DNA of 64,000 nucleotides from an uncultured Phycisphaerales bacterium (GTDB taxonomy: Bacteria > Planctomycetota > Phycisphaerae > Tepidisphaerales > Tepidisphaeraceae): the NCBI GenBank assembly GCA_963755915.1, contig CAVWLP010000002.1, positions 3,520,001 to 3,584,000 of the forward strand, read 5' to 3'. This document shows positions 9,125-48,107 of this stretch, piece by piece (positions within the stretch are counted from its first letter, which is position 1; every line of letters starts with the position of its first letter). The notes beneath the pieces are model-generated. The model ran no database searches. It was not told where the DNA came from and was given only the letters and a program-made list of their open reading frames with translations. The position numbers and the translations under genes are program-made.

Positions 9125-9153
9125 TTGCCGATTCGGAATGAGGCGGATACCAT
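9125..9153 (+). promoter_or_regulatory. Putative native sigma70-type promoter of tRNA-Val
   Basis: TTGCCG(9125-9130)-17 bp-TACCAT(9148-9153), 11 nt upstream of the tRNA 5'-end copy at 9165. Confidence 0.6.
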
Positions 9154-9164
9154 CCTTAGTGATA

Positions 9165-9186
9165 GGGCGATTGGCGCAGTTGGCTA
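9165..9186 (+). repeat. attL: 22-bp copy of the tRNA-Val 5' end
   Basis: GGGCGATTGGCGCAGTTGGCTA is identical to 46764-46785. Confidence 0.9.
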
Positions 9187-9370
9187 CGATACCACGTCTA
9201 TAAACCCTGGCGATTCCAGTCAGTTACAAAAACCCGCAGACCCCCCGACAGCATGTTTGTCAGCAGTCAGTGCAGAATTGCAGGCCGTGATTGAGTCTTG
9301 GCCGTTACTTCCGCAAGCCGCACGGCAAGCGATTCTGGCCACGATCCGAGCGGCAAAGGGGAAATGATCC

Positions 9371-9826
9371 ATGCCCTACACCGGACGCGAACGTGGCTCA
9401 CTGACAGGCCAAGAGCTTGAGGTTAAAGAGGCCCTGCACTTCTATTACCCGGACATCAACTCCGATTCCCGAATCTGGACTCCACTGACCGTGCTGTATG
9501 CCGCATACCTACGGCATTGGCAAGCCTGCAAGAAACGCGGATGGCGACGTGAGTCGATGAATGGCGTGCTGCTGTCCCCGCCAGTTGATCCGAAGCCGTT
9601 ACGGTTGAATCAATTTGGCCGGGTGATCCGCAGAGTGTTCCCGAATGCGAGCAAGGTCCGGCGAGTTGTGCGAGAGGCGGTCCGCACCCTGATTGCTGAC
9701 GATCCACAACGGGTAACGCTTCGCACCCGATGGCGTGTCCGATGGGGTTACACACTGGCCGGGCCGATGGCACTCCATTCCCACACACCACGCGGCGGGA
9801 AACGGAAGAACACCACGCCCATTTGA
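9371..9826 (+). CDS. Hypothetical basic protein
   Basis: ATG-started 151-aa ORF inside island 1; no family recognised. Confidence 0.4.
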   Translation: MPYTGRERGSLTGQELEVKEALHFYYPDINSDSRIWTPLTVLYAAYLRHWQACKKRGWRRESMNGVLLSPPVDPKPLRLNQFGRVIRRVFPNASKVRRVVREAVRTLIADDPQRVTLRTRWRVRWGYTLAGPMALHSHTPRGGKRKNTTPI

Positions 9827-10114
9827 TACGCGGATGAACCGCCCTCTCACGATGCTGTACTGATCCGTTGCGTTGAGTGAATGATTGATGCTGCGATGAT
9901 GCACACAGTTGAGACGGGGGGTGATACCTTTTGATCGTCAAATGGGTCCCATCCACTACCTTCTATAGCCATCAGTCGCGTATATAAAATTTAGCCTTGA
10001 CGATCTCGCCGGATACAAGATTGGTGAGCACTACCTCAACCCATCTTTTTTCCCAGTGTGCCGGCAGACTGGCGCGGAATGAAGTAGTCGTATCGACGTG
10101 GGGACGGCGTTGGC

Positions 10115-11014
10115 CTACCCATTCCAGAACTCCTCAAGTTCCTTGTTGTCTATTGGCGACGACAATTCGCCGAGGAGATGTTGACAAGTTCCTGCCTGCT
10201 GTTTGATTAGACCAATGTCCGAGTTGTATGTTTGCAAATCGGTATCGTTTTCAAACAGGATTATGCCGTTCTGGATTTCAAAATGTCCAAGCCGTGACTC
10301 CAAAAAGTTCAACTCATCGAGCACAGTTGCATGGAATTGCCGATTGGTATCGAATATCGCATGTGCCGTCGCCAGCGTAGCAGCCGCTTTGACCCGACAC
10401 GCGCCAACAAGCGATGATTTTGATGAGTTGTCTATTGGTATCGCTTGCAAGCGGTCAGGACACGACTCTATCAGTGAGCATATTTGTTTCTCAAATTCTT
10501 CACCGAGTTTTTCGCTTTGTTCAACCTTGGATCGTGCGGCAACAATCTTTTCCTTTGTGTCCAAATTCTCCGGTTTAAGGATTCCGTTACCCCAAATCGC
10601 ATTCATCTGGGCATTGTATTGATTCGCCAACTGCATCGTCTCCGCCTCGTATGCTTTTGCCTCATGCCGCAGTTGTTCGGTATCGCTTGCACTGACGGAT
10701 TGTGGTGTTGGTTTAGTAATTTCTGCACCGATCATTAGTGCTGCGATTATCACAACGGTGCCGTCAAAGGCACCCTTCGCGTTTTTGATTCGATTGCCCG
10801 GAAAACACACCGCCAGTCCCGCCACGACCATGCCGAAGAGTGCTGCGTCAAAAATTGATGCGGTTACAGTTTGCCACCAGCCATTGTCGCCAATCACTGA
10901 TATCGAGTAAAAAATAGCGGCAAGCAACACGCAGATTGTTCGCACTCGCCACCGCTTTTCCGGTCGTTTCGGTTGACTTTCTGCATCGGGCTGAGCAAGA
11001 AGTTCGTCACTCAT
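10115..11014 (-). CDS. Hypothetical membrane protein (about 3 TM helices + helical soluble domain)
   Basis: Hydrophobic N-terminal segments followed by a long helical region. Confidence 0.6.
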   Translation of the reverse strand: MSDELLAQPDAESQPKRPEKRWRVRTICVLLAAIFYSISVIGDNGWWQTVTASIFDAALFGMVVAGLAVCFPGNRIKNAKGAFDGTVVIIAALMIGAEITKPTPQSVSASDTEQLRHEAKAYEAETMQLANQYNAQMNAIWGNGILKPENLDTKEKIVAARSKVEQSEKLGEEFEKQICSLIESCPDRLQAIPIDNSSKSSLVGACRVKAAATLATAHAIFDTNRQFHATVLDELNFLESRLGHFEIQNGIILFENDTDLQTYNSDIGLIKQQAGTCQHLLGELSSPIDNKELEEFWNG

Positions 11015-11039
11015 TGGTATTCCTAATCCTGCCCAAAGT

Positions 11040-11447
11040 TCACTGACCAATCGCAATTGATGCAGTCGCGGATAATCCATTGCATGTAACGGTCACACTC
11101 CCCACGCCGGGTTCAGTCTTACTTCCGATCTTCCACGTCCACGAAACCCTGCCATCGGAATCGGCTATTTGGCTCACCAGCCCGGCCGCCCGGCTGATCG
11201 TGCCGTGGGGTGTGACGTATCGGATCGCACATTCGGCCCCCGGAATCGTTTGAGCAGTAACGCTCGCGTACCCGTCTGGACTCGCGCCACGCACCGAAAC
11301 GAATGTTACGCCGTTGGTGCTGGGCGATGCAGCGGATAATCGCGCCGGTGGTTGAGTTGTCGGCTGACTGCCCCGCGAAAACGCCGTGATAGTCACAGCA
11401 CCTATGCAGATGCACAGGGCGCTCCACCCGATAGATTTCAATAACAT
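11040..11447 (-). CDS. Small secreted beta-sandwich protein
   Basis: RBS GGAGG before MLLKSIG; signal peptide; 'ADSDGRVSWTWKIG..T.PG...VTVTC'. Confidence 0.6.
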   Translation of the reverse strand: MLLKSIGWSALCICIGAVTITAFSRGSQPTTQPPARLSAASPSTNGVTFVSVRGASPDGYASVTAQTIPGAECAIRYVTPHGTISRAAGLVSQIADSDGRVSWTWKIGSKTEPGVGSVTVTCNGLSATASIAIGQ

Positions 11448-11523
11448 TGTTGACCCTCCCGTGCGGACCCATTGGGCGCTATCGACTATCGGAGGGAACA
11501 GGTTGAGGATTATTTGCCGCGTC

Positions 11524-12597
11524 CTATGCTGGCCGGGCAGTGTTCGATTTAGCCACGGATCGGCGAAGTGACAACGCAAATCCAGCAAAGGCGAGAAGTG
11601 AAAAACTGGCAGGCTCCGGCACGGGGGTTAGTAAAAAAGCGTCGGGCTGGCCGTCAGGATTTATGCCGTTGCCGACAATCTGGCCTTCATCGTTGATCGC
11701 AACGGCGGTGTTAAGTGTCCAGCCGGAATTGGCAGGGACTAGATCGCTAAGATTGTCCGTATCCCCATCGCTATAGATGAAGGGAAATTCTCCGACGCCA
11801 ACAACCTGACCGTTTGAATTGATGCTGTTAGCGATGCTGTTCGATGGATCGGAAGCGTCGATGTCGATCATTTCCCCGTTGCTGTAAAGAAATGCGTGAG
11901 CAACTGTATCACCATTCAGTGCGGCCTGGCCCACGATCTCTCCGGTTGAGTTGATCGCGGTTGCAGCACTCCACGTTCCACCTAATGATCCTAAATATCC
12001 CACGGTCGATGAGTAAGCGTAGCCGTTAACGACTCCAACAATCTCCCCGGCATCGTTGATGGCAGTTGGAGCAAGTGGGCCGAGGTAAATCAATTTGTTG
12101 TTTTCCCAAAGGAATTCGCCACTGTTGCCATAGTCGAAATATTGGAGCCATGCTGAGTAGCCGACAATCGCACCGCTGTCATTGATCCCTGTGGCATAAC
12201 CCCCTGTCCAATCTGGATCGTAATCTGAGACGATACTGCCAAGATCATCGACTGACCCTCCGCCTTCAAACAATGCGGCATGAATGACTGAGACCGTTTC
12301 GGATTCGTAGTAAGGCTCGGCAAACGTCGCCCAACCAACGGCTTCTCCGCTGTTATTGATGGCCAGAGCTTCGCTTCCTGGTCCGCTCAAAGTGGTGAGA
12401 ATCCCACTGTCGTAAAGAACCGCCTCCATCCCCACGTTAGTTTCAGCCCACCCAACAATCTGCCCATTGTTGTTCATGGCTGTCGCGTTGAAATTCCCCA
12501 AGTCGGTAATCGAATATTCCACGCTCGCGGACACTGCACCGGCAAACGCGCAGAGAACAGCGCCCACGGCAACAGACGTAAGCCGAATGATGCCCAT
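11524..12597 (-). CDS. PEP-CTERM protein with HAF extracellular repeats
   Basis: Repeated 'A.AIN..G.IVG' units, 'HAFLYSNG', C-terminal VPEPA + TM + RR. Confidence 0.9.
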   Translation of the reverse strand: MGIIRLTSVAVGAVLCAFAGAVSASVEYSITDLGNFNATAMNNNGQIVGWAETNVGMEAVLYDSGILTTLSGPGSEALAINNSGEAVGWATFAEPYYESETVSVIHAALFEGGGSVDDLGSIVSDYDPDWTGGYATGINDSGAIVGYSAWLQYFDYGNSGEFLWENNKLIYLGPLAPTAINDAGEIVGVVNGYAYSSTVGYLGSLGGTWSAATAINSTGEIVGQAALNGDTVAHAFLYSNGEMIDIDASDPSNSIANSINSNGQVVGVGEFPFIYSDGDTDNLSDLVPANSGWTLNTAVAINDEGQIVGNGINPDGQPDAFLLTPVPEPASFSLLAFAGFALSLRRSVAKSNTARPA

Positions 12598-12914
12598 GTG
12601 AACCCCTACTGGCGAGAGGATGGGGGAATTATCGGACATCCGATCAAAATCCTGCACTCTTTCGCTTACGGGATTGGAAATGACGGCTGGATCGTGGGAA
12701 TGAGGGTGGGCGGGATTAGCGGGGTGTGCGTATGACCATCGGGACTTGATGCGGCGGCGACAGCAGACCTTTGACGACCATCAACGGCCGTTGCCTTGAC
12801 AATCCCCCCAGCCCTTACAGATTGACCCCGCAATCTGCTGATTCCGCAGCAATGATGCTTTGTACCACCTGACACAACATCAATCGTGGTGAATATTTTC
12901 TGTAGTGATCGTGT

Positions 12915-13808
12915 TTGTGGACGTGGATCGTTCCGCCATTGCCGGAGTTTCGGGATATGCAGACAGTGCAAAAGTCAGGATTTTGTCAGCAAAGTAGGTT
13001 TGCCGTTCGCGTGGATCATCTGCTAGGGCAATACCAGCACGGTCACTCATTTGCCGGTGCGATGGTGGCGGATTGGATTGGCCGGAAAACGGAATGGGAG
13101 ATCGCCGAAGTGCAATTTATGCGGGACACAGACATTTCGACCCCGGATGCTCGTGAGTATTGGGAGTCAAAACTATCGCGTGTACAACGGGGCGACGAGT
13201 ATAGCCGTTCATTTCGGATCGTGGATGACTTGGATTATGCCGTTTACGCCCTGGCACTGCGGGATTCCGTTCCCGGTTTTGAAAAAGTCTACGGCAACGA
13301 TCCACACAGATTCTACGGCGACGAGCTTATTCAGAATGGATACCGCTACGCTGGGTCCGCCGTGACCCTATCCGATGGAAGCATCCAGCCCGGCATCTAT
13401 GGGTTCATCCATCGCCCCCAAATTTGGGACGAATCCCTTGCAGCTTTGAAACGCCAGTTGGAATCTCTCGTAACGCATTCGCGTCGGCAGCAAGCCGAAC
13501 CCGCTCGCCAACGAAAGCGGTCAAGTATCCGGGGCGTGAGTAGCACAGTTCTTGTGGCCAAAATAGCGGACCTACGGAGAGAGAAGCCGGACATTACCAC
13601 GCCGCAAATCGCGGAAGAATTAGACTGTGACAAGAGCGCGTTGTACCGTCGTGCGGAGGAAAATACGACCCTCGACAAAATTCTCAACTCCACCGCAACT
13701 GCAACCAGCCAATCCATTTCGACGGTGGAGGATCGTGGCGGAGCACACAGCAAAAAAGACCGCATCAACTCCGATCATTCCCGCCGTGATACTGACGACG
13801 ATGAATAA
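12915..13808 (+). CDS. Hypothetical protein with C-terminal HTH (island regulator candidate); start uncertain
   Basis: 'ITTPQIAEELDCDKSALYRR' HTH-like segment. Confidence 0.55.
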   Translation: MWTWIVPPLPEFRDMQTVQKSGFCQQSRFAVRVDHLLGQYQHGHSFAGAMVADWIGRKTEWEIAEVQFMRDTDISTPDAREYWESKLSRVQRGDEYSRSFRIVDDLDYAVYALALRDSVPGFEKVYGNDPHRFYGDELIQNGYRYAGSAVTLSDGSIQPGIYGFIHRPQIWDESLAALKRQLESLVTHSRRQQAEPARQRKRSSIRGVSSTVLVAKIADLRREKPDITTPQIAEELDCDKSALYRRAEENTTLDKILNSTATATSQSISTVEDRGGAHSKKDRINSDHSRRDTDDDE

Positions 13809-13812
13809 GGCA

Positions 13813-13899
13813 TAGCAACTGCCTTAGCAACTGGATAGCAACTACTCCCACCTGAAAACACCGGGGAATCCATCATTTTAGCAACTCTGGCCAGCAACT
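13813..13899 (+). repeat. Five (T/C)AGCAACT direct repeats (operator- or iteron-like)
   Basis: Copies at 13813, 13825, 13836, 13879 and 13892. Confidence 0.75.
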
Positions 13900-13967
13900 C
13901 CGGCCCAAGGGTACAGCAGCCGCGGCGTTGTCGGCCAGAATCAGCGTTCAATGGTTTTTACCGGAGA

Positions 13968-14177
13968 TTGTCCATGCCTCTTACCGTATCTGACGTGGCC
14001 AAACGATTAGGCGTCCGGCCACAGGATATTTCAAGTTTGTTTTACAGGCAAAAGTTGCGGGATGATGAATGCCCCGTTGTCGCCGGGCGTCGATTGATCC
14101 CTGAGCATTACATTGACTTCATCGCAATGGCCTTGCGCCGGGAAGGCAAGTTGCTGCTGAAAGGGGAACAACGATGA
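13968..14177 (+). CDS. Small MerR/excisionase-like HTH protein
   Basis: 'LTVSDVAKRLGVRPQDISSLFY...CPVVAGRRLI'; paralog of 37961-38170. Confidence 0.7.
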   Translation: MSMPLTVSDVAKRLGVRPQDISSLFYRQKLRDDECPVVAGRRLIPEHYIDFIAMALRREGKLLLKGEQR

Positions 14178-14380
14178 ACGATTCAAACCTGAGTGTGCCC
14201 ACTCTTGTCAGTCCGAAAACAACCGCCGCAATTTTGGACATTTCGATTCGTTCCCTTTGGAGAATCGTCTCGACGGGGGAGTTGAAGCCCGTGCGGTTGA
14301 CGGGACGCATCGTGAGGTTCAAAGCAATGGATATCCAATCTTTTATTGATGCGAAAGCTGGTATCACCCATGCTTCCTGA
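14174..14380 (+). CDS. AlpA/excisionase-like HTH protein
   Basis: 'LVSPKTTAAILDISIRSLWRIVSTGELKPVRL..RIVRF'. Confidence 0.8.
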   Translation: MNDSNLSVPTLVSPKTTAAILDISIRSLWRIVSTGELKPVRLTGRIVRFKAMDIQSFIDAKAGITHAS

Positions 14381-16403
14381 ACAACTATCGCCAGAGCGGA
14401 TGCGAGAATTGAGCATAAAGTTTAAGAAGCATTTCACTCCGCCGGTCCCAACTGCGCGACGATTTAATCTTGAGAATCTGCGCAACAACGTCCCTGCCTA
14501 CATGCAGGACTTGTGCATTTGGGTGGCGTGGAAGTTTGGGCCACCCGAACGCAACGGGAAAAAACGAGCAAAGATTCCGTACACCATCAACGGCGATCTT
14601 GCCAGCAGCACCGATCCTGAGACTTGGAGCAGACAGGCCGATGTATTAAATGCGTTGGCGGGTGGTCGCTATGACGGGGTAAACTTTGCGACCGGCTTGC
14701 ATGAGGATGGATACTACTATTTGTCCATCGACATTGATGATGCTTTCGATGTTAACAGCAATCTCACACCGGATGCGAAGAAGATCATAGAATTGGCGCG
14801 CTCTTATGCCGAGCGTTCTCCCAGCGGCAAAGGTGTTCGGATCATCCTTCGCAGTCGGACCCCGTGCATACTCACTCGCCATCGCATCGCGGGTTGGAAC
14901 GTGGAAGTGGAATGGGGCGGAAAATTCCAAAGCGTAACCGGCAACCACATTGGCGGCACGCCGGATGAGTTGTCCGATGGCCAGGATGCCATTGCCTACA
15001 TCCAACGGCGTTTCGCTGAATTGGCAAACCCGAATGATGTCTGTGTGGGCGAGCCGGGCCAGTCACGTTTCTCTGACGATAATTTGATCCGCCGTGCGAG
15101 CCGAGCCAAGAACGGAAAACGGTTCGATGATCTTATGTCCGCCAAACCGTTCACGAACGAATCGGAAGCAGATTTTGAGTTGGCCTGCATCGTTTCCTTT
15201 TGGAGTAATAGGGATCACAACCAAATTGAGCGGATAATTTCCAACTGCCCTCGTGGCCAGCGTGCTAAGTGGAAGAATCGCCCCGATTATCGACGCAGCA
15301 CGATTGAGGCTGCAATACGTGCCACGGCCAATACATTCGGTTCGGGTGAAACGTCAAAGGAAAAGCATCCGGTTTCTCAGCCGATCATTGTTTGTTTGTG
15401 CGACGTGGAAGCCCGGCCCGTGAATTGGCTTTGGCCGAACCGAATCCCCTTCGGCAAAATCACACTGCTTGCTGGATACCCAGGCTACGGAAAAAGTTTT
15501 GCCACACTGGATATGGCGATGCGAGTTTCTACCGGCACGGCTTGGCCCGATGGCCCGGCTTGCCCAATTGGTGACGTGCTGATTATCAGCGCCGAAGATG
15601 ATCCGGCAGATACCTTGCGGCCCCGGCTCGATGGGATGGGTGCGGATGTAACCCGCATCCAAATCCTCTCAATGGTTCAAAATCCGAACGATGCCGGAGA
15701 GCGGATGTTTTCATTGTTGGACCTACTAGCCCTTGAATCGGCGATTCAACAAATACCCGCGTGTAAGCTCATCATCATTGATCCAATCGGGTCATTCGTC
15801 GGCGGAGAAACCAATACCGACAAAGACAATCAAGTGAGATCGGTGCTGGCCCCGGTCGCAAAGCTGGCCGAACAGTACGGCGTTGCGGTTTTGATTGTGG
15901 CTCATCGTCGTAAGGCATCCGGCGAACGGGCCGACGATTCGATTCTCGGATCGGTCGGCTTCGTCGGCATTGCCCGCGCCACAATGCACCTTGTCCGCGA
16001 CCGTGACGACAAAGAACGGAGGTTGCTATTGCCCGGCAAAAATAACCTCGCACCAGAAGGCACGGGATTGGCTTTCAAGATCATTGGCAGGCCGGGAATC
16101 GTGCAGTGGGAACCGGAACCCGTCACTGTGCGAGCGGATGATTTCTTCTCCGCCCAACAGGACAGCAAGCCCGGCCCCGATCCCACGGCCCGCAATGAAG
16201 CCGGGCAATGGCTGGTGAGTCTTTTGGCTGACGGAAAGGAAGTTGCGGTGAAGGACATCAAAGCCGGGGCGACGGCGATGGGGCACGCATGGGCAACGGT
16301 CAAGCGAGCGGCTGATGGTTTGCCCATAGTCAAGCGTTGGGGTGGTCCGGGGGAGCCGGGTTACTGGCGGATTCCAACGCCGGGTGCTTCCGATGCAGTC
16401 TGA
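14370..16403 (+). CDS. Primase-polymerase (NrS-1-like AEP) fused to AAA_25/RepA-type helicase
   Basis: 'WVAWK..KIPY..ASSTDPETW', 'DIDD', 'YAERSPSGKGVRI'; Walker A GYPGYGKS, AEDD, IIIDP. Confidence 0.85.
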   Translation: MLPEQLSPERMRELSIKFKKHFTPPVPTARRFNLENLRNNVPAYMQDLCIWVAWKFGPPERNGKKRAKIPYTINGDLASSTDPETWSRQADVLNALAGGRYDGVNFATGLHEDGYYYLSIDIDDAFDVNSNLTPDAKKIIELARSYAERSPSGKGVRIILRSRTPCILTRHRIAGWNVEVEWGGKFQSVTGNHIGGTPDELSDGQDAIAYIQRRFAELANPNDVCVGEPGQSRFSDDNLIRRASRAKNGKRFDDLMSAKPFTNESEADFELACIVSFWSNRDHNQIERIISNCPRGQRAKWKNRPDYRRSTIEAAIRATANTFGSGETSKEKHPVSQPIIVCLCDVEARPVNWLWPNRIPFGKITLLAGYPGYGKSFATLDMAMRVSTGTAWPDGPACPIGDVLIISAEDDPADTLRPRLDGMGADVTRIQILSMVQNPNDAGERMFSLLDLLALESAIQQIPACKLIIIDPIGSFVGGETNTDKDNQVRSVLAPVAKLAEQYGVAVLIVAHRRKASGERADDSILGSVGFVGIARATMHLVRDRDDKERRLLLPGKNNLAPEGTGLAFKIIGRPGIVQWEPEPVTVRADDFFSAQQDSKPGPDPTARNEAGQWLVSLLADGKEVAVKDIKAGATAMGHAWATVKRAADGLPIVKRWGGPGEPGYWRIPTPGASDAV

Positions 16404-16643
16404 GAGTGTGATATTGAGCCAAGGGAGATTGAGCTATGGGAAATTTCGCTAAAATCAGGGGTGTACCCTCATTATTTCGCAAATAGCGCTTAGCTCAAAG
16501 TCGCTTGGCTCACATTCGCTCTCACGGTGCTGTCCTAAGCAACGCCCGTCCGAGCAGTGAAGATTGGAGGCCGAATGTCGCAATAAGCTGTATTTAATAT
16601 GGTCATCATATACGTTACAGATAAACCTTTTTGATCGCATCAA

Positions 16644-17078
16644 TTGAGGAGTTTAACCATGAGTGAGTATCTTTCCCGAAAGCAATTCGGACCCGTGCTT
16701 GTGACCATCGACAGTATGTCCCTAACCGGCGTGAATCTCCGATTTGAGTCCGTAGAAGGCGAAGTCCGCGTCACCGACAATTCTAAGGAAAGCGTCGCCC
16801 TGTGCTCGGACGTTGGTGTGTTTTCTTCGGCAGAAATGTTCCGCTGGCTTGGTGATGAAATCATGCGACTTCAAACAATCAAAAACACTGTTGACGCTGT
16901 GGAGGCCGATATGCGGCCCCGCGTCCAGCGGATGATTGATGATGCGTTCGCAGCCAAGGCATATTCATTGCGGGATATGGACCACATGAGTTTTCAGGTT
17001 GGATATCAGGAAAACAAAGATCGTGATCGGGCAGAGCGCCAGTCAAACGGCGATACAGAGAATGGCGGTGCTGCATGA
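16644..17078 (+). CDS. Hypothetical protein (likely start 16659)
   Basis: RBS GAGGAG before MSEYL; its stop overlaps the next start. Confidence 0.5.
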   Translation: MRSLTMSEYLSRKQFGPVLVTIDSMSLTGVNLRFESVEGEVRVTDNSKESVALCSDVGVFSSAEMFRWLGDEIMRLQTIKNTVDAVEADMRPRVQRMIDDAFAAKAYSLRDMDHMSFQVGYQENKDRDRAERQSNGDTENGGAA

Positions 17079-17356: not shown

Positions 17357-17399
17357 TGCGGATTTTCATGTTATATTGATCGCAACGGGAGTAAATGCA

Positions 17400-22304: not shown

Positions 22305-22339
22305 CGGGGCTGATCGGCTGAGCGCGGTACAATTCCGCA

Positions 22340-39749: not shown

Positions 39750-39791
39750 TTGCAACATTCCGATGGACAGCGCGTATGATGCGGCAGAGTC

Positions 39792-41402
39792 ATGGACGAC
39801 GCGGCCCTCCTGGAACTTCCTGACGACCCAATCCTGCTCAAGCGTCTGATTGTCGAGCGCGATCGAGCCATCGCGCAACGTGACGAATCGATCCAGTTCC
39901 TGAGCCAGGACAACCAGCTCCTGCGTCATCGCCTGGCGGCGTTGCTGCGAAGCAGCTACGGCCCGCGTGCTGAGCGGTTTGATCCCCGGCAACTGCTGCT
40001 CTTCGGCCTGCTGGTGCCGAGGATTGAATTCCCAGCGACGGGTTCCACCCTGAAGTCCAAGTCGCCCAACCGATCCAAGCATGGCCGCCAAAAACTTCCC
40101 GAACATTTGCCGCGTCTGCCCATTGAACACGACCTGAGTGAATCGGAGAAGGCCTGTCCCTGCTGCGGCGAGACGCGCCAGCGCATCGGCCAGGAGAAAA
40201 GCGAGCAACTGGAGCACCTTCCCTCCAACTTCGTGGTCCTGGAGCACATCCGCCACAAGTACGCCTGCGAGCATTGCAATTCGGGCCGTTGCCAGAAGTG
40301 CGATGGCCAGGCTCACATCGATCTGGCCGCCAAGCCCCAGCAGCCGATTGAAAAGGGCTTGGCCGGTCCGGGACTCCTGGCGTATGTGGTGACCTCAAAA
40401 CTCGCGGATCATTTGCCGCTGCACCGGCTGGAGCAGATTTTCGCCCGCCAGCAGGTCCACATCAGCCGCTCAACGCTGTGTGGCTGGATGGCGGCGGCGG
40501 CCCAGGTGGTCGAACCGTTGTACAAGTTCATGTGCGACCGCGTCCGCCAAAGCGATATCCTGCACACGGACGACACGATTGTTCCGATCCAGCACGAAGG
40601 TCACTGCCGGCAGGGACGGTTGTGGACGTACGTTGGGGATGAACGCCATCCTTATATTGTGTACGACTTCACGCCGACGCGCTCGGGCCAGGGGCCGTTG
40701 GCCTGGCTGGGAACATGGAAGGGCTTTTTGCAGGCCGACGCCTACGCCGGCTACGACAAGTTGTACGCGCGCGGCGACGTGACGGAGGTCGCCTGCTGGG
40801 CTCACGCGCGACGAAAATACTTTGACGCTCAGGAATCCGATCCCGCGCGGGCGTTGTGGATGTTGGAGATGATCCGCCGGTTGTACGCGGTGGAGAGTGA
40901 AGCCGCCGGCCGTGATGCGCCAACGCGCCTGCATCTACGGCAATCGCAGTCCGCGCCGATCCTGGAGCAAATCCACTTGTGGCTAATCGAGCAGCAGGCA
41001 CAAGTGCTGCCCAGGAGTCCGATCGCCCAGGCCATGGGTTACGCGCTGAACCAATGGCCGGCGCTGGTGGTCTACACGACCGATTCGCGACTGAGCATAG
41101 ATAATAACGTGGCGGAACGCGCCTTGCGCCGTGTCGCGATCGGACGAAAAAATTGGTTGTTTTCGGGGCACGACGAGTCCGCCCAGGGCTACGCAATCCT
41201 GTGGTCGCTGATCGCCAGCGCCCAGCGTCACGAGATCGACGTGCAGTTATACCTGCGCAGCGTGCTGGCCCACTTGCCGGGCCTGCCGGCGGAAGAATTG
41301 CAAAACTATCTGCCCGACGCGTGGAAGCGCGACCTGATGGACGTACAGTGGGCGACGCTGAATGCTCATCACGCCAGCCTGGCGCGAGGCACTGTCAAAT
41401 GA
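39792..41402 (+). CDS. tnpC: IS66 DDE transposase TnpC
   Basis: Zn finger CPCCG, 'HLPLHR', 'HTDDT', 'LQADAYAGY', 'CWAHARRK', 'IDNNVAERALR...GRKNWLF'. Confidence 0.95.
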   Translation: MDDAALLELPDDPILLKRLIVERDRAIAQRDESIQFLSQDNQLLRHRLAALLRSSYGPRAERFDPRQLLLFGLLVPRIEFPATGSTLKSKSPNRSKHGRQKLPEHLPRLPIEHDLSESEKACPCCGETRQRIGQEKSEQLEHLPSNFVVLEHIRHKYACEHCNSGRCQKCDGQAHIDLAAKPQQPIEKGLAGPGLLAYVVTSKLADHLPLHRLEQIFARQQVHISRSTLCGWMAAAAQVVEPLYKFMCDRVRQSDILHTDDTIVPIQHEGHCRQGRLWTYVGDERHPYIVYDFTPTRSGQGPLAWLGTWKGFLQADAYAGYDKLYARGDVTEVACWAHARRKYFDAQESDPARALWMLEMIRRLYAVESEAAGRDAPTRLHLRQSQSAPILEQIHLWLIEQQAQVLPRSPIAQAMGYALNQWPALVVYTTDSRLSIDNNVAERALRRVAIGRKNWLFSGHDESAQGYAILWSLIASAQRHEIDVQLYLRSVLAHLPGLPAEELQNYLPDAWKRDLMDVQWATLNAHHASLARGTVK

Positions 41403-41446
41403 GCATTGTGGCCGGTTGATTCGTTAGGTATCGTTTGTGAGCGACG

Positions 41447-42055
41447 ATGGACCGCGGCGATTGGCAAAACCTGGTGGACCAACTTCGCGGCGCCGAGTAC
41501 CGGTTTGGCCTGCTTACACGCGATACGCCGGTCCATCGGTTACAGTTCGACGCTGGCCTCACTGACGCGGAAATCGCGGCCGCACAGACTCGATTTGGCT
41601 TTCGGTTTCCTCCCGACCTTCGTGCTTTTCTCCAAACCGCCCTCCCGCGTGGCCCAAGGTTCCCTGACTGGCGGTGTGGCGAGGAGCCTGGAATTCAAGA
41701 GTTGCTGGACCTTCCGCGACAGGGGATTCTGTTCGACATCGAGCACAACCAGTTCTGGCTGGAGGAGTGGGGACCACGGCCTCCCTCACTCGATGAGGCG
41801 TGCCGGATCGCCAGCGAATTGGTTGCCGCAGCTCCAAAGTTAATTCCGATATACGGTCATCGGATGATGCCGGATGAGCCGCACCTACCTGGCAACCCGG
41901 TATTTTCGGTCCACCAGACGGACATCATCTACTACGGGTTTGACTTGGCGGACTACTTCCGGCATGAGTTCGACCTGCCGGGCAGGGAGCCGTGGCCGGA
42001 CACGATACGGCCGATCCGGTTCTGGGACATCGGCCGGTTTCAGGAAGTGCGATAG
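41447..42055 (+). CDS. SMI1/KNR4 (SUKH) family protein
   Basis: 'GLTDAEIAAAQTRFGFRFPPDLRAFL', 'APKLIPIYGHR', 'NPVFSVHQTDIIYYG'. Confidence 0.8.
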   Translation: MDRGDWQNLVDQLRGAEYRFGLLTRDTPVHRLQFDAGLTDAEIAAAQTRFGFRFPPDLRAFLQTALPRGPRFPDWRCGEEPGIQELLDLPRQGILFDIEHNQFWLEEWGPRPPSLDEACRIASELVAAAPKLIPIYGHRMMPDEPHLPGNPVFSVHQTDIIYYGFDLADYFRHEFDLPGREPWPDTIRPIRFWDIGRFQEVR

Positions 42056-42723
42056 CCAGGGGGTTCGTAAGCGACAGGTCTACGCTGGCACGCCGCAACA
42101 CTGCTGCTTCTGCCGGTCCGGAAGCAATCCCTCAACCCGGCTGATCGGCGTCGCCGGCAAGTTCGTCAGCAATTGAGTCGGCGCTGGGGGTCCTGAAATC
42201 AGCTCCTCGCCAGTCTCTCACAAAGGGATGCGGATGGCGGAACGGATACCGACGATTGTGTCGATGAAACTCACTCCCACGATTTTCCCTCCGTCATTCT
42301 CAATGTCCACGAGTGGGTGAGGGTTGGACGACCAACTTCCGCCTATAATTGGGTGTTCAAGGAGCATTAGCCGCCGCGTTTTGCCAGGATGCTCCAAATG
42401 GCTCGTGCGTCTCTGAAGATAACCCGCCGGTCGATGGTGACGATTGCATTGCCTGAAGGCGGGTACGCCCAATTCAAACTTAACGGCAGGTTGCCCGTGT
42501 ATTGCTCCCGTCCGGACACGCCTTGGCTCGATTCATTTGAGGTTAAGTTTGCGACGGTGCGTGGAGCTTACATTGACCATAACGCGCGGCGATTCCTCAC
42601 CGAGAAACTTCCCATCCTGAGCGAATCATTGCTGTTGCAGCGTTACCGCGAGGGGCGAGGCATAGACTTGAAAGAGCTTCAGCGTGCGCCGGTTATTACT
42701 GCTCGCGAAGCGCGGGAACATTC

Positions 42724-43182
42724 TCATTGATTCGGCCTAGTCGAATAGACTTGAGGAAAAGGCTCGGAACGGCCTGTGATGGGGGCCGGGGGCGACGAAT
42801 CCGCCGTCAGGCTGCGCTGGCTTGTCGAGTGGATGCAATAGAGCATTACTGCTGCTCCGGCGGTCACACAAAATGTGCTGAGAATGAGTGCCGCCGACTT
42901 TAATGATGCCCGGCAGGACAATCCACGCAGCGCAAACATCGTGCCCGTGGTCACGATTGCGAGGATCGCATACTCAACCGTGAGTCGCCCGCAATCCAAC
43001 AACAGGCTGTCCGACACATCTTCGAGTCTGTCAGTTGGAGGGGCGGCAATGAAGGCATAGCTCACAGGATATTCGGCTGGCCCGTTCGTGAAATGAGCGA
43101 TTACAATCCACGGCGGAAAAAGCCCAATCAGGACCGCCAGCATCAACGCCAGGATAAGAATTGTGCGCTGCCAAATGTTCAC
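42724..43182 (-). CDS. Hypothetical membrane protein
   Basis: 'QRTILIL...GLFPPW' and about 3 hydrophobic segments. Confidence 0.55.
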   Translation of the reverse strand: MNIWQRTILILALMLAVLIGLFPPWIVIAHFTNGPAEYPVSYAFIAAPPTDRLEDVSDSLLLDCGRLTVEYAILAIVTTGTMFALRGLSCRASLKSAALILSTFCVTAGAAVMLYCIHSTSQRSLTADSSPPAPITGRSEPFPQVYSTRPNQ

Positions 43183-43443
43183 GGCTGGTCCCTTACCGGC
43201 CTATCGGCTGAATCGCGTGGCGAGTGTAATAAATTACACTGACCGACACCCCTGCCGCCGTTACCGTTTTCGGCGGTGCTCAAGGACGAACTGCGAATGG
43301 CACGGATTAGCGTCCAATCTCACATTTGAGGGTATCGAAAATCCCAAAACCGGCGCGGCGGAACAGTGGCGCACGTTGCTTGCTCAGATTAGGGCTGTTC
43401 CGACAACTCAATTGACCACCCAATTGCCGGCATACAATCAACC

Positions 43444-43662
43444 ATGTTGTTGTCAATTTCTGAAGCCGCAAACCGTTTGAGTATTCCCTCAAGAGCCGTT
43501 GCTTATGCACTCCGCAAAAACCTTGTGCCGAGTGTGCGGGTAGAAGGATATCGCAAAGTCCACACCGATGATTTGCCAAAGTTAAAGAGGGTCGTGCAAC
43601 CTAAACCGCAGCCTGCCCGTGGCTCCCGACGTTCTTTTATCAATCGAAAGATGCCCCAGTAG
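43444..43662 (+). CDS. Small HTH DNA-binding protein
   Basis: 'LLSISEAANRLSIPSRAVAYALRKNLVPS'. Confidence 0.6.
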   Translation: MLLSISEAANRLSIPSRAVAYALRKNLVPSVRVEGYRKVHTDDLPKLKRVVQPKPQPARGSRRSFINRKMPQ

Positions 43663-43677
43663 GCATAGGAGAGAACA

Positions 43678-43953
43678 ATGCACGATGACGATATCACCAG
43701 CCAATTTGAATTATGTAGCCCAAAACAAATTGCAGAAACACCCATTCAATTTCTCACTCTGTCCGACATAATCACGCACTTGTGGGGACGATATGACGCA
43801 ATCGCCGTCTCTGCAATGAATGAAGGGGATGAGCTACCGATCTTGTCGGCTTGTTTGGGATCAATTAAATTGCGGCAAGTGGTGCTCGACCACCTACATG
43901 AGATTGAGGAAATCACCCCTGCCGAAACCGACGGCGATGACTCCGGGGGATAA
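43678..43953 (+). CDS. Hypothetical acidic protein
   Basis: RBS AGGAG before ATG; co-oriented with the HTH gene. Confidence 0.4.
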   Translation: MHDDDITSQFELCSPKQIAETPIQFLTLSDIITHLWGRYDAIAVSAMNEGDELPILSACLGSIKLRQVVLDHLHEIEEITPAETDGDDSGG

Positions 43954-44363
43954 TTGGCTGGCCGGTCCTTGCACTCTCCACCAATACATACTTGTCGAAA
44001 CCCGCACGTTGATTCCATTCTTCAGCAAGCTTTTTGGCGTCCTCAATCAACTTCACTACGATATTGTGATTGGCTACAATTCCATGCCGTGGCTTGGCAT
44101 ACTCCCGTATCACAACATTCTCATAGCCGTCCTCTGGCGGATCATTTTTGAGGAGTTGTATATATTCAATGCCGCCGGGGCTGGTCTGCCATCGCTTCAT
44201 CGTTCCCCTTTCGTGGTGATGTAGAATCATCGGCACAAACAGCGCAACGATTGGGGATTCAGAATTGCAATAGCCGGTCCAATAACGCCCTTAACACACT
44301 CCGAATGTAGCCGCTCGTGCCTATATCCCGATGATCCCCGACCATCGCCAAAGGGGATTCATC

Positions 44364-44963
44364 ATGGGCAGCAAGCTATTTCCGCTCGTTTGTGTGGTCG
44401 TATCCATCATGTCGATGGCAGTCGCGTCCAGCGGACAGATAATTGCGGGACCAGTCACAAATCCATCGAACAACTTCCAGTACTATCTGCTCGCGGTAAA
44501 CACTTGGACAAATTCGGAAGCTGAGGCGATTTCGATGGGCGGGAACCTCGCAACAATCACCGACGCATCGGAGAACGCATGGATACTAAATACCTTCAGC
44601 CCATTCGTAGATTCCGGCTTGTGGATTGGCTTCTATGACCCGGACATCGGTGATACTGCGGGTGCTCAACACGCTGCTGATTTTATTTGGGCGAGCGGCG
44701 CACCAATAACCTATACAAATTGGGCACCGGGAGAACCGAATGATGGTGCGGGAGGGTTTGGCGGGGAGTATTATACGGCCATGTATCCCTCGCTTTATGG
44801 CACAAATGGCCCGGCGGGAACTTGGAACGATGAGAATAACACCGGATCGGGAACTATTGACTTTGGTGTGGTGGAGGTAGTGCCTGAGCCATCGTCGATT
44901 GGGTTGCTGGCGTTACCGCCGCTCATCCTGCATCGTCGTCGCGTTAATCTGCATAACCAATAA
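44364..44963 (+). CDS. C-type lectin domain PEP-CTERM protein
   Basis: 'W..SEAEA...GGNLATI', 'WIG', 'YTNWAPGEPND', 'WND'; VPEPS + TM + RRR. Confidence 0.9.
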   Translation: MGSKLFPLVCVVVSIMSMAVASSGQIIAGPVTNPSNNFQYYLLAVNTWTNSEAEAISMGGNLATITDASENAWILNTFSPFVDSGLWIGFYDPDIGDTAGAQHAADFIWASGAPITYTNWAPGEPNDGAGGFGGEYYTAMYPSLYGTNGPAGTWNDENNTGSGTIDFGVVEVVPEPSSIGLLALPPLILHRRRVNLHNQ

Positions 44964-45005
44964 TGGCGGCTTTGCCGCGCTCCCGAACGTGGTGTACGTT
45001 GACGC

Positions 45006-45266
45006 ATGGCGCACGAGCCTGAAGTCATCTATGATATCTCACACCTGACGGGAATCGGCGAAGCTCCCGCGATGCCTGTCCCTCCACCTGGACAACCCAC
45101 CACGATGACCGCTCACCAGCTTGCCGCTTACTGGCAAGTCTCACTGCGGACGATCCGCACGCTCTACGCCACGGGCAAGCTCCCAAAACCTGAACGTGTG
45201 GGCCGATCCTTGCGCTGGCGGACTGAGGATATTCAGCGTACTCCACCGCCCCGCAAAGGCTCATAG
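45006..45266 (+). CDS. Excisionase/AlpA-like HTH protein
   Basis: 'MTAHQLAAYWQVSLRTIRTLYATGKLPKPERVGRSLRW'. Confidence 0.8.
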   Translation: MAHEPEVIYDISHLTGIGEAPAMPVPPPGQPTTMTAHQLAAYWQVSLRTIRTLYATGKLPKPERVGRSLRWRTEDIQRTPPPRKGS

Positions 45267-45482
45267 CAGCCACGTTTTCAAGCTCACGCGGCTCGCATCC
45301 CGATTTCTTCGCCCTCGCCGCATTTTGCTTCCCACGAGCAATCTCACCACCGACGCCCGATTTTGTCGATTTTAGGGTTTAATCGGACCATTACGCTTAT
45401 CTCGACATCAACCCGTGTTGGCGCGTGATTCCATCCCCAGAATGTGCCGTCGCCCGCTAAAAGACCATGGTATATCCGTGGC

Positions 45483-46586
45483 ATGGCGATCATTTACCAG
45501 CGGAAGCGGAATGGCCCGTGGTACGCGGATTACGTCGATGCCGATGGCATCCGCACCCGCAAGACCACAGGCACGGGGGACAAGACAGCGGCCCAATTGA
45601 TCGCAGACCAATGGGAGCGTGATAAGGCTTTAATCAAGGGCGGGTTTGTCACCACGTCCGCAGTAAAGACGCGAGATTCAGGCAGTCAATCTGTATCCAA
45701 ATTCATTGGCTCGTACATCGCTGAATGCAAAAGTAATGGGCAATCAGCTATTCACGTCAGCATCAAGGAATCCCAATTGAATCGGCTGGTGAAGTTCACT
45801 GGTGCGAAAATTCTTGCGGACATTACGGCGGATGAAATCGCACGGTATCTAGACGACTTGAAAATAAAGAAGCTGTCGAATCGAACAAGAAATCAGCACC
45901 GGACCACGTTCGCATCGCTCTATGAATATCTCTGTGAGAAGCACTACGCAGCGTCCAACATCGTCAAGGGTATTAAGACTCTGAACGATGACAAGGATCG
46001 GCGACGTGTCCGCAGGGCTTTGATGAAAGAAGAAATCGCCCTGCTTTTTCAAGTCAATTCTCAACGCGCCCTGTACTACAAATTCGCGATTTACACTGGC
46101 CTGAGAGTTCGGACGGCCAAAGCGATCCGCTGGTGTGACATCGACATCGACGCGGCAATCATTACCGTGCCAGCACCCATCATCAAATCAGCCCACGATT
46201 TTGAGCTACCAATTCACCCGGATTTGTTAGGCGCGTTGCGTGAGGCAAAAGCACAGGCGAAATTGCCGACAGACCGGGTATTCAATCACATCCCTTCAAT
46301 ACGCACCTTCCATCGTGATTGCGAGCGGGCGGGCATTCCCCGATACGATGCGGCGGGACGCCAGCTTGATCGCCACGCCTTACGCACATCGTTCGGGACG
46401 AATCTGGCAAGGTCTGGTGTGTTGCCTCAACACGCGATGAAGCTGCTTGGCCATACCGATCTGCGGACCACAATGAAGCACTACACGGCCCTCACGCTTG
46501 ATGACCGTGCCTTAGCACTGGCGAAATTCACTGTGCCTCCCCCGGCTTCCAACGCTCAGCAGACTCCCACAACTAAGGCGGGCTGA
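45483..46586 (+). CDS. Tyrosine recombinase/integrase (island 2)
   Basis: TGLR, HALR, LGH and HY motifs; shares 'RTFHRDCERAGI.RYDA.GRQLDRHALRT' with 17400-18821. Confidence 0.95.
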   Translation: MAIIYQRKRNGPWYADYVDADGIRTRKTTGTGDKTAAQLIADQWERDKALIKGGFVTTSAVKTRDSGSQSVSKFIGSYIAECKSNGQSAIHVSIKESQLNRLVKFTGAKILADITADEIARYLDDLKIKKLSNRTRNQHRTTFASLYEYLCEKHYAASNIVKGIKTLNDDKDRRRVRRALMKEEIALLFQVNSQRALYYKFAIYTGLRVRTAKAIRWCDIDIDAAIITVPAPIIKSAHDFELPIHPDLLGALREAKAQAKLPTDRVFNHIPSIRTFHRDCERAGIPRYDAAGRQLDRHALRTSFGTNLARSGVLPQHAMKLLGHTDLRTTMKHYTALTLDDRALALAKFTVPPPASNAQQTPTTKAG

Positions 46587-46723
46587 AATTTCTAAATAGT
46601 TGTTGCTCACCCCTTGTGCCGTATATGTGTCAGATTCGCTGCACCTGATTGCATCGCGTTGCATCTATGGATCGCGTTCAAGCGTCCGATAAACAATGGG
46701 TTAGCTCAGAAAAACCGTGTTGG

Positions 46724-46752
46724 TTGCGTAATTTCAAAATCCGCATTACCAT
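46724..46752 (+). promoter_or_regulatory. Island-supplied promoter for tRNA-Val
   Basis: TTGCGT-17 bp-TACCAT, 11 nt before the tRNA start. Confidence 0.65.
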
Positions 46753-48107
46753 GCGAATAACACGGGCGATTGGCGCAGTTGGCTAGCGCACCAGCATGAC
46801 ACGCTGGGGGTCACAGGTTCGAGCCCTGTATCGCCCATTTCCACTTCTTCGCATTGCGTCGCATCATTTCGCACAGTATCGCAAGCTCCGGCAGATGGAG
46901 CATTTGCGGAATCTGAGCCGGAACATGGTGCGACATGCTGCGACGCCTTGCGAGCAGATGCTGCACTGGATTCTGCACCGCCTGTCTCAGACGCTGCTTC
47001 CGCCGCCTTTGCAAAATGCTCATCGGTGATCTGAAGGTAGTGATCGCGCGCTACCACCTCGCTGTTGCCAATCCAGGCACAGACCACATGAGCAGGCCAG
47101 CTTTCCGTCAGTTCCGTCTGCCGTGACGACCGAAGATTCTGAAAGAGCTTTGGCCACGGCTCGATCCCGGCTTTGGCAAGAATCCGGAGGAATTGCGTGC
47201 GAATGTTGACGGCCGGATTGCGGTATCGGGTGATGACATACGTGGCGCCCTCTTCCGCCTGGGCGAACGCTTTCAAAAGGTGTGATTTGAGTTCAGGAAA
47301 CAGCGGAATGAGCCTCGACTCTTTCCCGACGTGGTGCTCCGTCTTGCTCGCCCGGATGAGAATTTTCGATTGATCCCACAGCACGTCGCCCCAGCGAAGC
47401 GCCAGGACTTCACTCGGCACCCTCACGCCCCCGTACCGTGCCAGTGCAATGATTAGTTTCCACTCGACATCAGGAGCCGCGGCAATCGCCTTCTCGATTA
47501 CCGCCCGACTGATAAAACGCTGCCGCTGCGGGTTCTTCTGCGACCCCGCCTTAACCTTTGAAAAGGGACTTTTCGCAATCCGCTCACCATCGACAGCATC
47601 TTTGAAGAATTGACGTGCACGGAGCACGATTTTTGCCACATAGGCCGAGGAATGCTTCGCCGAGAGGTCCCGTTTGAAATCCAATGCGTCGGCAACGGTG
47701 ATCGTATGGACCGACTTATCCTTCCCAAAAAACTTAACCAGCTTATCCCGTGATTGCTTGAGGGTCGTGATTGACCACGGCTTCATATCGGCCCGTCGGC
47801 GGTCGATGTAATCATCCACCATTTTTGCCAGGGTGAGAGGACCGTCGCTCGAATGTTTTCGGGCGGACGTTAGACGGGTACGCGCCAAACGGTCGTGCAA
47901 TTCGTCGCTGATAGAAGCCAGCCAGTTGACCGTATCGACGTGCAATGGCATTCCCGTCTTGATTGCCCCGATCAGGCGTTCGACATGCAGCTTGACCCCT
48001 TCGGCTGTCCGCTGGTCGCACTTGCCGAGTCGAACGCTCCGGCGTTTCTCATCAAGTCCCACAAACTGAATCGCTCTTCGCCCGCTTTCATTGGTGATGC
48101 TCGCCAT
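46746..48107 (-). CDS. Tyrosine recombinase/integrase (island 3); its tail reads antisense through the tRNA
   Basis: 'ARYGGVRVPSE', 'KTEHH', 'FQNLRSSRQTEL', 'WIGNS..VA..HYLQ'. Confidence 0.9.
   Translation of the reverse strand: MASITNESGRRAIQFVGLDEKRRSVRLGKCDQRTAEGVKLHVERLIGAIKTGMPLHVDTVNWLASISDELHDRLARTRLTSARKHSSDGPLTLAKMVDDYIDRRRADMKPWSITTLKQSRDKLVKFFGKDKSVHTITVADALDFKRDLSAKHSSAYVAKIVLRARQFFKDAVDGERIAKSPFSKVKAGSQKNPQRQRFISRAVIEKAIAAAPDVEWKLIIALARYGGVRVPSEVLALRWGDVLWDQSKILIRASKTEHHVGKESRLIPLFPELKSHLLKAFAQAEEGATYVITRYRNPAVNIRTQFLRILAKAGIEPWPKLFQNLRSSRQTELTESWPAHVVCAWIGNSEVVARDHYLQITDEHFAKAAEAASETGGAESSAASARKASQHVAPCSGSDSANAPSAGACDTVRNDATQCEEVEMGDTGLEPVTPSVSCWCASQLRQSPVLFAW
46764..46837 (+). 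tRNA. tRNA-Val(GAC)
   Basis: Acceptor GGGCGAT/ATCGCCC, anticodon stem CCAGC/GCTGG with loop ATGACAC, T-arm ACAGG-TTCGAGC-CCTGT; CCA not encoded. Confidence 0.95.

Follow-up and report, generated by a model that had tools for sequence, protein, structure and literature searches.

Two tandem integrative elements in the 5′ part of a planctomycete tRNA-Val gene and the replacement promoters they are predicted to supply

How can a tRNA gene remain expressed when integrating DNA enters at its 5′ end and parts it from its own promoter? The question is raised by a tRNA-Val(GAC) gene in a 64,000-nucleotide (nt) stretch of DNA from an uncultured Phycisphaerales bacterium of the family Tepidisphaeraceae (C2:3520001-3584000 in a 6.6-Mb, 3-contig genome), the whole of which is referred to below as the window and numbered from its first letter. 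The reading favored here, to which a probability of about 0.75 is assigned on the basis of the DNA sequence, is that two elements have probably integrated in tandem into the 5′ part of this gene through a crossover in its 5′ half, and that the element-borne (P) arm of the attachment (att) site would in each case supply a replacement promoter (Table 1).

The array is framed by repeats of the 5′ end of the tRNA. Exact copies of tRNA nt 1-18 stand at 9165, 18784 and 46764, the last belonging to the reconstituted gene, and the lengths and positions given in the initial annotation (22 nt at 9165, 18 nt at 18784, intact gene at 46764) match those found here, as does its description of two islands at tRNA-Val. 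Each island is bounded by a 5′ copy of the tRNA and carries a tyrosine integrase (Int1 and Int2, respectively) at its tRNA-proximal end. When up to 3 mismatches are allowed, 5 matches are seen, as against a mean of 0.12 in shuffled sequence, and none of 100 shuffles reaches 5. The 3′ part of tRNA-Val is repeated nowhere within the window. The identity blocks span the 5′ acceptor strand along with the D-stem and D-loop and end there, the pattern of a D-loop sublocation; they comprise nt 1-22 in island 1, in an element of a related genome (G008) and in a tRNA-Val(CAC) island of the same genome as the window, and nt 1-18 in island 2, and what they fix is just how far to the right the crossover can lie (nt 18 or nt 22). 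This layout corresponds to the one by which Islander, as set out in the description of its criteria, recognizes an island, namely an intact tRNA gene and a same-orientation end fragment with an integrase between them, a 5′ fragment lying upstream (PMC4383910): the fragments at 9165 and 18784 precede the gene at 46764, all on the plus strand, with Int1 and Int2 between.

It is scarcely credible that these repeated ends represent an assembly artefact, a chance match or a duplicative repeat, with no site-specific recombination involved. The assembly (81% completeness in 3 contigs) looks like a draft long-read metagenome-assembled genome with frame errors, as such an explanation would have it, but three exact copies contrast with an expectation of 0.12, both of the copies that come after an island have an integrase of the clade described below directly upstream, a relative has the site in its empty form, and the same type of junction recurs in other genomes and in metagenomes.

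The empty site is found in a member of the same genus (G001), in which the orthologue of the GH35-like gene at the left of the array (88% identical) is followed by ~290 bp, by TTGCCG-17-TAGCAT-11 and by an intact, identical tRNA-Val gene. The initial annotation had set out in advance that an island-free relative should carry tRNA-Val directly after the GH35-like gene, and this is the order seen in G001, the unoccupied site of which marks 9125-9164 of the window as the native promoter region. Six GH35 loci were compared in all; in the remaining five, which are 71-73% identical and in part lie on short contigs, the stretch examined contains no tRNA. Sequence upstream of 9125 is chromosomal, encoding a trehalase-like hydrolase and a halogenase in addition to the GH35-like gene, and has a GC skew of +0.16 to +0.41 (window 1-9000). 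The skew falls to ~0 from 9000 on, a drop that coincides with attL, and does not return across the rest of the window, including the part past the tRNA, which fits foreign DNA on either side of the gene. The GH35-like gene itself is broken into two overlapping frames (7361-8365 and 8203-9072), and its G001 orthologue is also broken, over several frames (L006 1500-3130); split frames in both of these few-contig genomes (completeness 81% and 66%, respectively) suggest long-read indel errors rather than pseudogenes.

Occupied sites of the same kind are found elsewhere. In G008, an attL with a different upstream gene combines a promoter of the native type with the same 22-nt block and with a left end that shares 73% identity with the left end of island 1, and on another contig of this genome an integrase 75% identical to Int1 adjoins a full tRNA. 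The window's own genome holds a third island of the 5′ type, delimited by a 22-nt repeat of tRNA-Val(CAC) at C2:3019506 and the corresponding gene at 3031041 (to 3031114), 11.5 kb apart; a clade integrase lies just upstream of the gene, and the native and island promoters are near-identical (TTGAAG-17-TACCAT-11). These sites bear on the idea that islands 1 and 2 form one composite element, having arrived as a pre-formed tandem or being divided by an internal site that is a dead relic. Both insertion orders yield the observed junctions, so that the order is unreadable, and excised forms are absent from the viral and metagenome loci searched, both of which a composite would accommodate; yet a lone island-1-like element stands beside a full tRNA in G008 and in metagenome contigs, the two integrases are just 47% identical (over 375 amino acids, aa), the identity blocks measure 22 and 18 nt, and the left arms differ. 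A composite origin is thus very unlikely.

Both integrases retain a full catalytic domain, with its tyrosine upstream of the att core. Residues R220, K247, H311, R314, H337 and Y347 (Int1 numbering) are invariant in a 9-sequence alignment (A1) that includes Int1 and Int2, and presumably constitute the catalytic R-K-H-R-H/W-Y set of tyrosine recombinases. The start of Int1 is likely the ATG at 17400. Its C-terminal tail of ~115 aa is read through the predicted island-1 promoter (P1) and the att core, the frame crossing 18784-18801 before its stop at 18821. Int2, which is locus L015 of the survey described next, is without a long tail: its stop lies 178 nt short of the tRNA, and all three frames are closed downstream.

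Relatives of these integrases were surveyed in 141 genomes of the family, at 80 loci on genome contigs, 3 viral loci and 80 metagenome loci. All full-length relatives at least 52% identical to Int1 and with enough flanking sequence lie upstream of, and co-oriented with, a tRNA-Val gene (GAC, CAC or TAC), and a small group ~30% identical to Int1 shows the same layout at tRNA-Arg(CCT) and tRNA-Cys(GCA). Other relatives, at 25-40% identity and from Planctomycetota, Verrucomicrobiota, Lentisphaerae and Kiritimatiellae among other groups, face a tRNA 3′ end in the classical arrangement (3′-type). Three partial integrases (L033, L051 and L169) have no nearby tRNA and look like remnants. In a quick maximum-likelihood tree of 97 de-duplicated rows, from which matches shorter than 220 aa or with stops had been dropped, the Val group forms one clade of 10 rows with a Shimodaira-Hasegawa-like approximate likelihood-ratio (SH-aLRT) value of 97, and the Arg/Cys pair a separate clade (SH-aLRT 100); 60 rows are of the 3′-type, and for 25 the flank contains no tRNA. 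It is to the 3′-end type that the nearest relatives of Int1 and Int2 belong. The 5′ label changes twice on this tree, one change being compatible with the well-supported branches, and a single origin of 5′ targeting may still be entertained. The proposed link between an integrase clade and tRNA 5′ ends, for which a homolog survey had been suggested, is therefore borne out in that the Val-type integrases form one clade, all of them co-oriented upstream of the tRNA.

Upstream of each of the three tRNA copies lies a pair of hexamers with a 17-nt spacer, 11 nt separating the end of the −10 hexamer from the G with which the tRNA begins, with the coordinates and geometry originally described (Table 1). 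Because TTGNNN-N17-TANNNT occurs in this genome at 5.7e-5 per position, three such pairs at one fixed offset are not due to chance. Homologues of the native pair at 9125-9153 are the empty-site promoter of G001 and the promoters of G008, G002 and G010, and an arm shared by L022 and L052 is related to the P arm of island 2 (TTGCGA-17-TATCAT-11). The strict form, TTGNNN-17-TANNNT-11, is present in 17 of 21 distinct 5′-type P arms and in none of 59 3′-type arms of the same integrase family, one of which has any such motif within 80 nt. The motif is therefore not a family-wide recombination signal, but appears only where a tRNA needs a promoter, in agreement with the earlier proposal that attP brings a (predicted) replacement promoter.

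The conservation of the motif also acts on DNA rather than on protein. Across the last 24-44 aligned codons, which include the translated arm, synonymous divergence (dS) is low relative to the integrase core (0.19/1.28, 0.15/0.41, 0.06/0.49 and 0.25/1.87 in four comparisons), while the ratio of non-synonymous to synonymous divergence (dN/dS) is ~0.7-3.5 as against 0.05-0.12 in the core, a combination that indicates constraint on the DNA. In addition, the motif is kept in arms that are not translated: downstream of Int2 with its closed frames, in L021, which is frame-shifted, and in L022, where an integrase remnant lies ~1 kb away. The conserved positions of the arms (TTG, the 17-nt spacer and TAnnnT) are those that define host tRNA promoters, which have the form TTGACx-16/17-TAnnnT and end 8-20 nt upstream of the gene; the sequence of the spacer is variable. 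The exact 17/11 geometry is found at 3 of 83 host tRNAs, two of which are island-associated Val genes. From this evidence, promoter activity of the P arms would be expected, and the promoter of island 2 is predicted to drive the tRNA today.

Several observations weigh against the replacement-promoter reading. The three hexamer pairs match the sigma-70 consensus at just 7-8 of 12 positions, a weak match, and none of them is flagged by a generic sigma-70 scan with a threshold of 9 of 12. Four of the 21 arms are without the strict motif, namely L018 (TAACTC), L221 (offset 10), and L044 and L167, which have none. The tail of the integrase evolves near-neutrally (dN/dS 0.45-0.9). No excised attP or circle junction was found in the 3 viral-contig and 80 metagenome loci, present-day mobility of the islands being presumed, and the frame errors of the assembly call for care with single truncated frames. 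Finally, the integrase gene points in the same direction as the tRNA and nothing resembling a terminator separates the two, so that read-through from the integrase could supply the tRNA and no internal promoter would be needed.

This last observation leads to an alternative in which 5′ insertion is real, but the TTG...TA...T boxes are recombination signals (for the integrase, for integration host factor (IHF) or as arm-type sites) and the tRNA is made by integrase read-through. In keeping with such an explanation, the integrase frame runs into the tRNA, the consensus matches are weak, as noted above, chromosomal (B) and P arms are alike beyond the hexamers (~19/20 bases around the −10 at the Val(CAC) island), and read-through has been proposed for the archaeal pTN3-like elements (PMC8371274). 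The complete absence of the motif from the 59 3′-type arms would be unexpected for a family-wide protein-binding site, however, and the positions conserved are exactly those of host tRNA promoters, with the spacer free to vary. Furthermore, native tRNA-Val genes without an integrase share the boxes (11 of 28 loci) and must be transcribed somehow. The explanation by recombination signals is consequently considered unlikely, and the boxes are taken below as predicted promoters.

What accounts for the uniform spacing? The claim that all three sites have identical promoter geometry is correct as far as the sites themselves are concerned, but is best explained by homology between arm and native sequence, not by convergence. 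Sequence resemblance suggests that each P arm is homologous to what lies upstream of native tRNA-Val genes: at the Val(CAC) island, native and island arms share TTGAAG and ~19/20 bases around TACCAT, and across the family 12 of 28 tRNA-Val(GAC) loci have the 17/11 geometry, 11 of these without an integrase within 1.5 kb, the remaining loci having TATAAT-type boxes at other distances (locus L132 was left out of these counts and of the open-frame check given below). The Arg and Cys islands keep 17/11, despite a 17/13 arrangement at the host's own tRNA-Arg(CCT), which indicates that the geometry travels with the island lineage. In an arm that lies inside a frame entering the tRNA, a change would be tolerated only if frame and spacing both survived it, and the geometry may have been frozen in this way.

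Six integrase-free tRNA-Val(GAC) loci (L128, L130, L131, L133, L140 and L147) have an island-like upstream sequence, GACTTG...GATAnCAT, with tail-like peptides. The upstream open frame extends over 155 codons in L140 and 109 in L147, the control for these lengths being unfair because the promoter boxes close the other two frames. There are hints, then, that some 'native' tRNA-Val promoters are leftovers of decayed islands.

Overlap of the promoter with the integrase coding tail, which the initial annotation had noted in island 1, is the rule in the clade: the integrase frame passes the promoter into the tRNA in 16 of 21 5′-type arms. A TAG or TAA in the D-loop ends the frame in 12 of the 21 (the stop ending at tRNA nt 23-24; offset +22/+23), and tRNAs without a D-loop stop triplet are read further. 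With an anchor just behind the catalytic tyrosine as the common starting point, the integrase frame is open as far as the tRNA at 7/10 5′-type and 51/59 3′-type loci, compared with 1/20 and 7/118, respectively, for the other two frames. About 32 residues beyond the tyrosine, the tail of ~110 aa contains a conserved motif resembling ATGTDG, which is present as a strict pattern in 7/10 5′-type, 16/59 3′-type and 4/25 unplaced rows and in looser form in others; the tail may have a function. In an excised form of the Int1 type, constructed in silico, the D-loop TAG becomes TAC and the frame gains ~60 codons in the window and ~100 in G008, but a 28-bp indel in G008 means that this extension is not a conserved frame. 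The same indel places the conserved small left-end open reading frame (ORF) of the G008 element in another frame, and the notion that integration splits a fusion frame, formed by the tail and the left-end ORF of island 1 (in-frame in the window), was rejected for that reason.

It is distinctly improbable, though conceivable, that a host-enzyme-driven switch of directionality is built into the 3′ end of the integrase gene. If it were, translation would always cross attP into the target tRNA, and the recombination state would be read via the integrase 3′ end. In the integrated state, RNase P cleavage at tRNA nt 1 would remove the stop at tRNA nt 21-23, and the non-stop integrase mRNA would lead to tagging by transfer-messenger RNA (tmRNA), low integrase levels and a stable island; the excised circle, lacking a complete tRNA, would make a longer, intact protein. 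The same proposal includes a flip from 3′ to 5′ targeting via the palindrome of the acceptor stem, by which the same 7 bases would face the integrase from either end of the gene.

According to the proposed mechanism, two distinct integrative elements (9.6 and 28 kb), each with its own primase-type replication gene and tyrosine integrase, would have used a crossover that, in this clade, falls within tRNA nt 1 to 18-22, that is, in the 5′ acceptor strand, D-stem and D-loop, its exact point being presumed. Entry of the element on the upstream side of the crossover would leave the chromosomal promoter behind at attL (9125-9153), and the body of the tRNA would be joined to the P arm of the element, which would present, in order, the −35 hexamer, 17 nt, the −10 hexamer, 11 nt and tRNA nt 1 to ~20. 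Transcription would start ~4-5 nt before the mature 5′ end, leaving a short leader for RNase P to trim. In most members of the clade the P arm doubles as the 3′ end of the integrase frame, encoding a weakly constrained tail, and the recombination state would change the integrase C-terminus, as reported for phage Mx8.

The 3′ side of the tRNA is also occupied by foreign DNA. A third and distant tyrosine integrase (Int3, 25% identical to Int2) faces the gene from downstream, its frame crossing the entire tRNA antisense and stopping within the −10 box of island 2. A segment of 2071 bp (window 46809-48879), comprising the last 29 nt of the tRNA, Int3 and ~770 bp more, recurs with 99.86% identity at C2:3646120-3648190, 79 kb downstream, which indicates that the DNA downstream of the tRNA is foreign as well. 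The second copy is preceded by a Val(CAC)-like anticodon-stem sequence, giving an attP-like junction, and the repeats probably represent tandem Int3-type elements. The tRNA gene is therefore a mosaic, with up to its first 18 nt derived from island 2 and its last 29 nt common to the Int3 element. The 29-nt 3′ repeat at C2:3646120 had been considered as the far end of a third island and was rejected, as it is part of the 2071-bp repeat with the second Int3. The far boundary of the insertion on the Int3 side was looked for and not found, and the G001 sequence downstream of the tRNA has no counterpart in the window's genome. At C2:3699152-3702079, 53 kb past the second Int3 copy, 27 tRNA genes of many specificities lie within 3 kb, which may be a mobile-element tRNA array. 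Within the window, ORF 50583-51566 contains five tandem copies (50731-51429) of a unit of 111-117 nt, with 62-71% identity to the reference copy.

Table 1. Positions of the chromosomal flank, att sites, predicted promoters, islands and integrases in the window.
Feature	Position	Strand	Basis or remark
GH35/GH42-like glycosidase with DUF5597	7361..9072	+	Pfam; chromosomal flank
Native (chromosomal, B-arm) tRNA-Val promoter, predicted, now orphaned	9125..9153	+	TTGCCG (9125-9130)-17-TACCAT (9148-9153)
attL, displaced tRNA-Val nt 1-22 (5′ acceptor strand, D-stem, D-loop)	9165..9186	+	exact repeat
Island 1, ~9.6 kb	9187..18783	.	Pfam + PHROGs
PEP-CTERM protein, island 1	11524-12657	-	Pfam/PHROGs
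Primase-helicase, island 1	14346-16403	+	Pfam/PHROGs
Int1, tyrosine integrase, 481-aa frame	17376..18821	+	PF00589 1.7e-17, 64.1 bits (cut-off 27.1)
Island-1 P-arm promoter, predicted, inside Int1 frame (codons D-L, D-S-I)	18744..18772	+	TTGAAC (18744-18749)-17-TAGCAT (18767-18772)
Middle att site, tRNA-Val nt 1-18; joins island-1 P arm to island-2 left end	18784..18801	+	
Island 2, ~28 kb	18802..46763	.	Pfam + PHROGs
ArdC-like protein, island 2	19405-20340	-	
Two IS1-like transposase genes, island 2	25393-26244; 32978-33838		
M78 peptidase, island 2	31098-31916	-	
Primase, island 2	35414-37918	-	
IS66-family transposase, island 2	39792-41402	+	
Int2, tyrosine integrase, 380 aa	45444..46586	+	PF00589 2.2e-17, 63.8 bits (cut-off 27.1)
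Island-2 P-arm promoter, predicted, non-coding	46724..46752	+	TTGCGT (46724-46729)-17-TACCAT (46747-46752)
Reconstituted tRNA-Val(GAC)	46764-46837	+	ARAGORN; identical to G001 empty-site tRNA
Int3, distant tyrosine integrase, 3′-facing	46746..48107	-	PF00589 7.3e-7, 29.6 bits (cut-off 27.1)

The left ends of the islands show some features of their own. Island-1-type left ends carry a small conserved frame of ~27-30 aa (window 9280-9364; L013 ~1690-1775) with the peptide pattern ...LQ.I...W..LP..AR.AILA.I..AK..*, the frame of which relative to the core differs in the two genomes. A CAGTTACAA-like motif lies 37-43 nt to the right of the core block in the left (P′) arms of the three islands and in the G008 element (window 9229-9237 and ~18839-18845; C2:3019566-3019574; L013), with the variants AGTTACA in island 2 and CTTACAA in G008, and is a candidate arm-type binding site. 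In island 2, the minus strand at 32836-32856 holds a 21-nt match, with 2 mismatches, to the left junction of the island (core + TCC); this stretch is inside ORF 32255-32905 (peptide EAIGAVVPS), behind a promoter sequence of good quality, TTGACT-17-TATAGT, and beside an IS1-like transposase gene, and could be a chance match or an att-like relic. Island 2 also encodes a C-type lectin-like protein, and the insertion that carries its IS66-family transposase (38900-42200) has a GC content of 0.61-0.62, compared with ~0.52 for the island.

Insertion at the 5′ end of a tRNA is rare among catalogued islands, Table 1 of the Islander paper listing 3919 islands, 3760 with a 3′ fragment and 159 with a 5′ fragment (PMC4383910). 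The present islands resemble classical 3′-end islands, as outlined there, in having the integrase beside an att site, a direct repeat of a tRNA end and a tandem array (Int3 being of the classical kind), but differ in that duplication affects the 5′ end, that the tRNA has the island on its upstream side and that what must be supplied is a promoter instead of a 3′ end or terminator. In Klebsiella pneumoniae, islands upstream of tRNA-Arg (arg2) use a site consisting of the 5′ acceptor half, D-stem and D-loop, which that survey names a novel D-loop sublocation and describes as a trait of a particular integrase clade (bioRxiv 10.1101/2020.11.02.365908). Position upstream of the tRNA and clade-specificity are common to both cases, whereas the phylum differs, as does, presumably, the integrase lineage; the main-text passages of the Klebsiella account mention neither a replacement promoter nor an integrase frame entering the tRNA. 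For the pTN3-like or TKV4-type elements of Thermococcales, attB is likewise the 5′ half of a tRNA, and the rebuilt tRNA, cut off from its own promoter, depends on element DNA for its expression (PMC8371274). Unlike the pTN3/SSV type, in which the archaeal 'suicidal' integrase gene is split and transcription of the tRNA is attributed to the integrase promoter, Int1 and Int2 keep their catalytic domain whole, and a dedicated, sigma-70-like predicted promoter stands just before the tRNA.

A different precedent concerns the integrase frame. Myxophage Mx8 uses the 3′ end of tRNA-Asp. According to the Islander paper, the integrases of Mx8 and SSV extend across attP, and integration alters the C-terminus of Mx8 IntP (PMC4383910), as would be the case for Int1, though not for Int2. 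Unlike in Mx8, the frame here runs in the sense direction into the 5′ end of the tRNA, where a stop in the D-loop closes it, and passage into the tRNA is family-wide among 5′- and 3′-type loci (16/21 and 51/59, respectively). Finally, dusA-associated islands replace the 5′ end of their target gene, with putative −35/−10 boxes before and after insertion, but the target is protein-coding and the integrase family a different one (PMC4482086). Since 5′ or D-loop integration, promoter replacement and an integrase extending across attP are each in print, no new principle is involved; what is new is that the promoter geometry is fixed, that the predicted promoter lies within the integrase frame, that the D-loop of the tRNA provides the stop and that the frame stays open across attP throughout the family. 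A literature search, with subscription journals and supplements beyond reach, returned no tRNA 5′-end islands in Planctomycetota, no promoter in an integrase tail and no D-loop stop closing an integrase.

Integration at a tRNA 5′ end is a rare mirror image of the textbook case, in which a host gene of an essential type has to receive its promoter from the element. Annotation tools that look only downstream of tRNA genes miss islands of this kind. The loci described here constitute a natural series, from an empty site through single, tandem and decayed insertions to 21 diverged arms with one geometry and 3′-type sisters without the motif, and this series could be used to study by what route a lineage of integrases moves from targeting the 3′ half of a tRNA to targeting its 5′ half, and what keeps the integrase frame open across attP. 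For the bacterial family itself, the geometry shared by 12 of 28 loci suggests that some tRNA-Val promoters may stem from islands or may have passed between islands and host by exchange.

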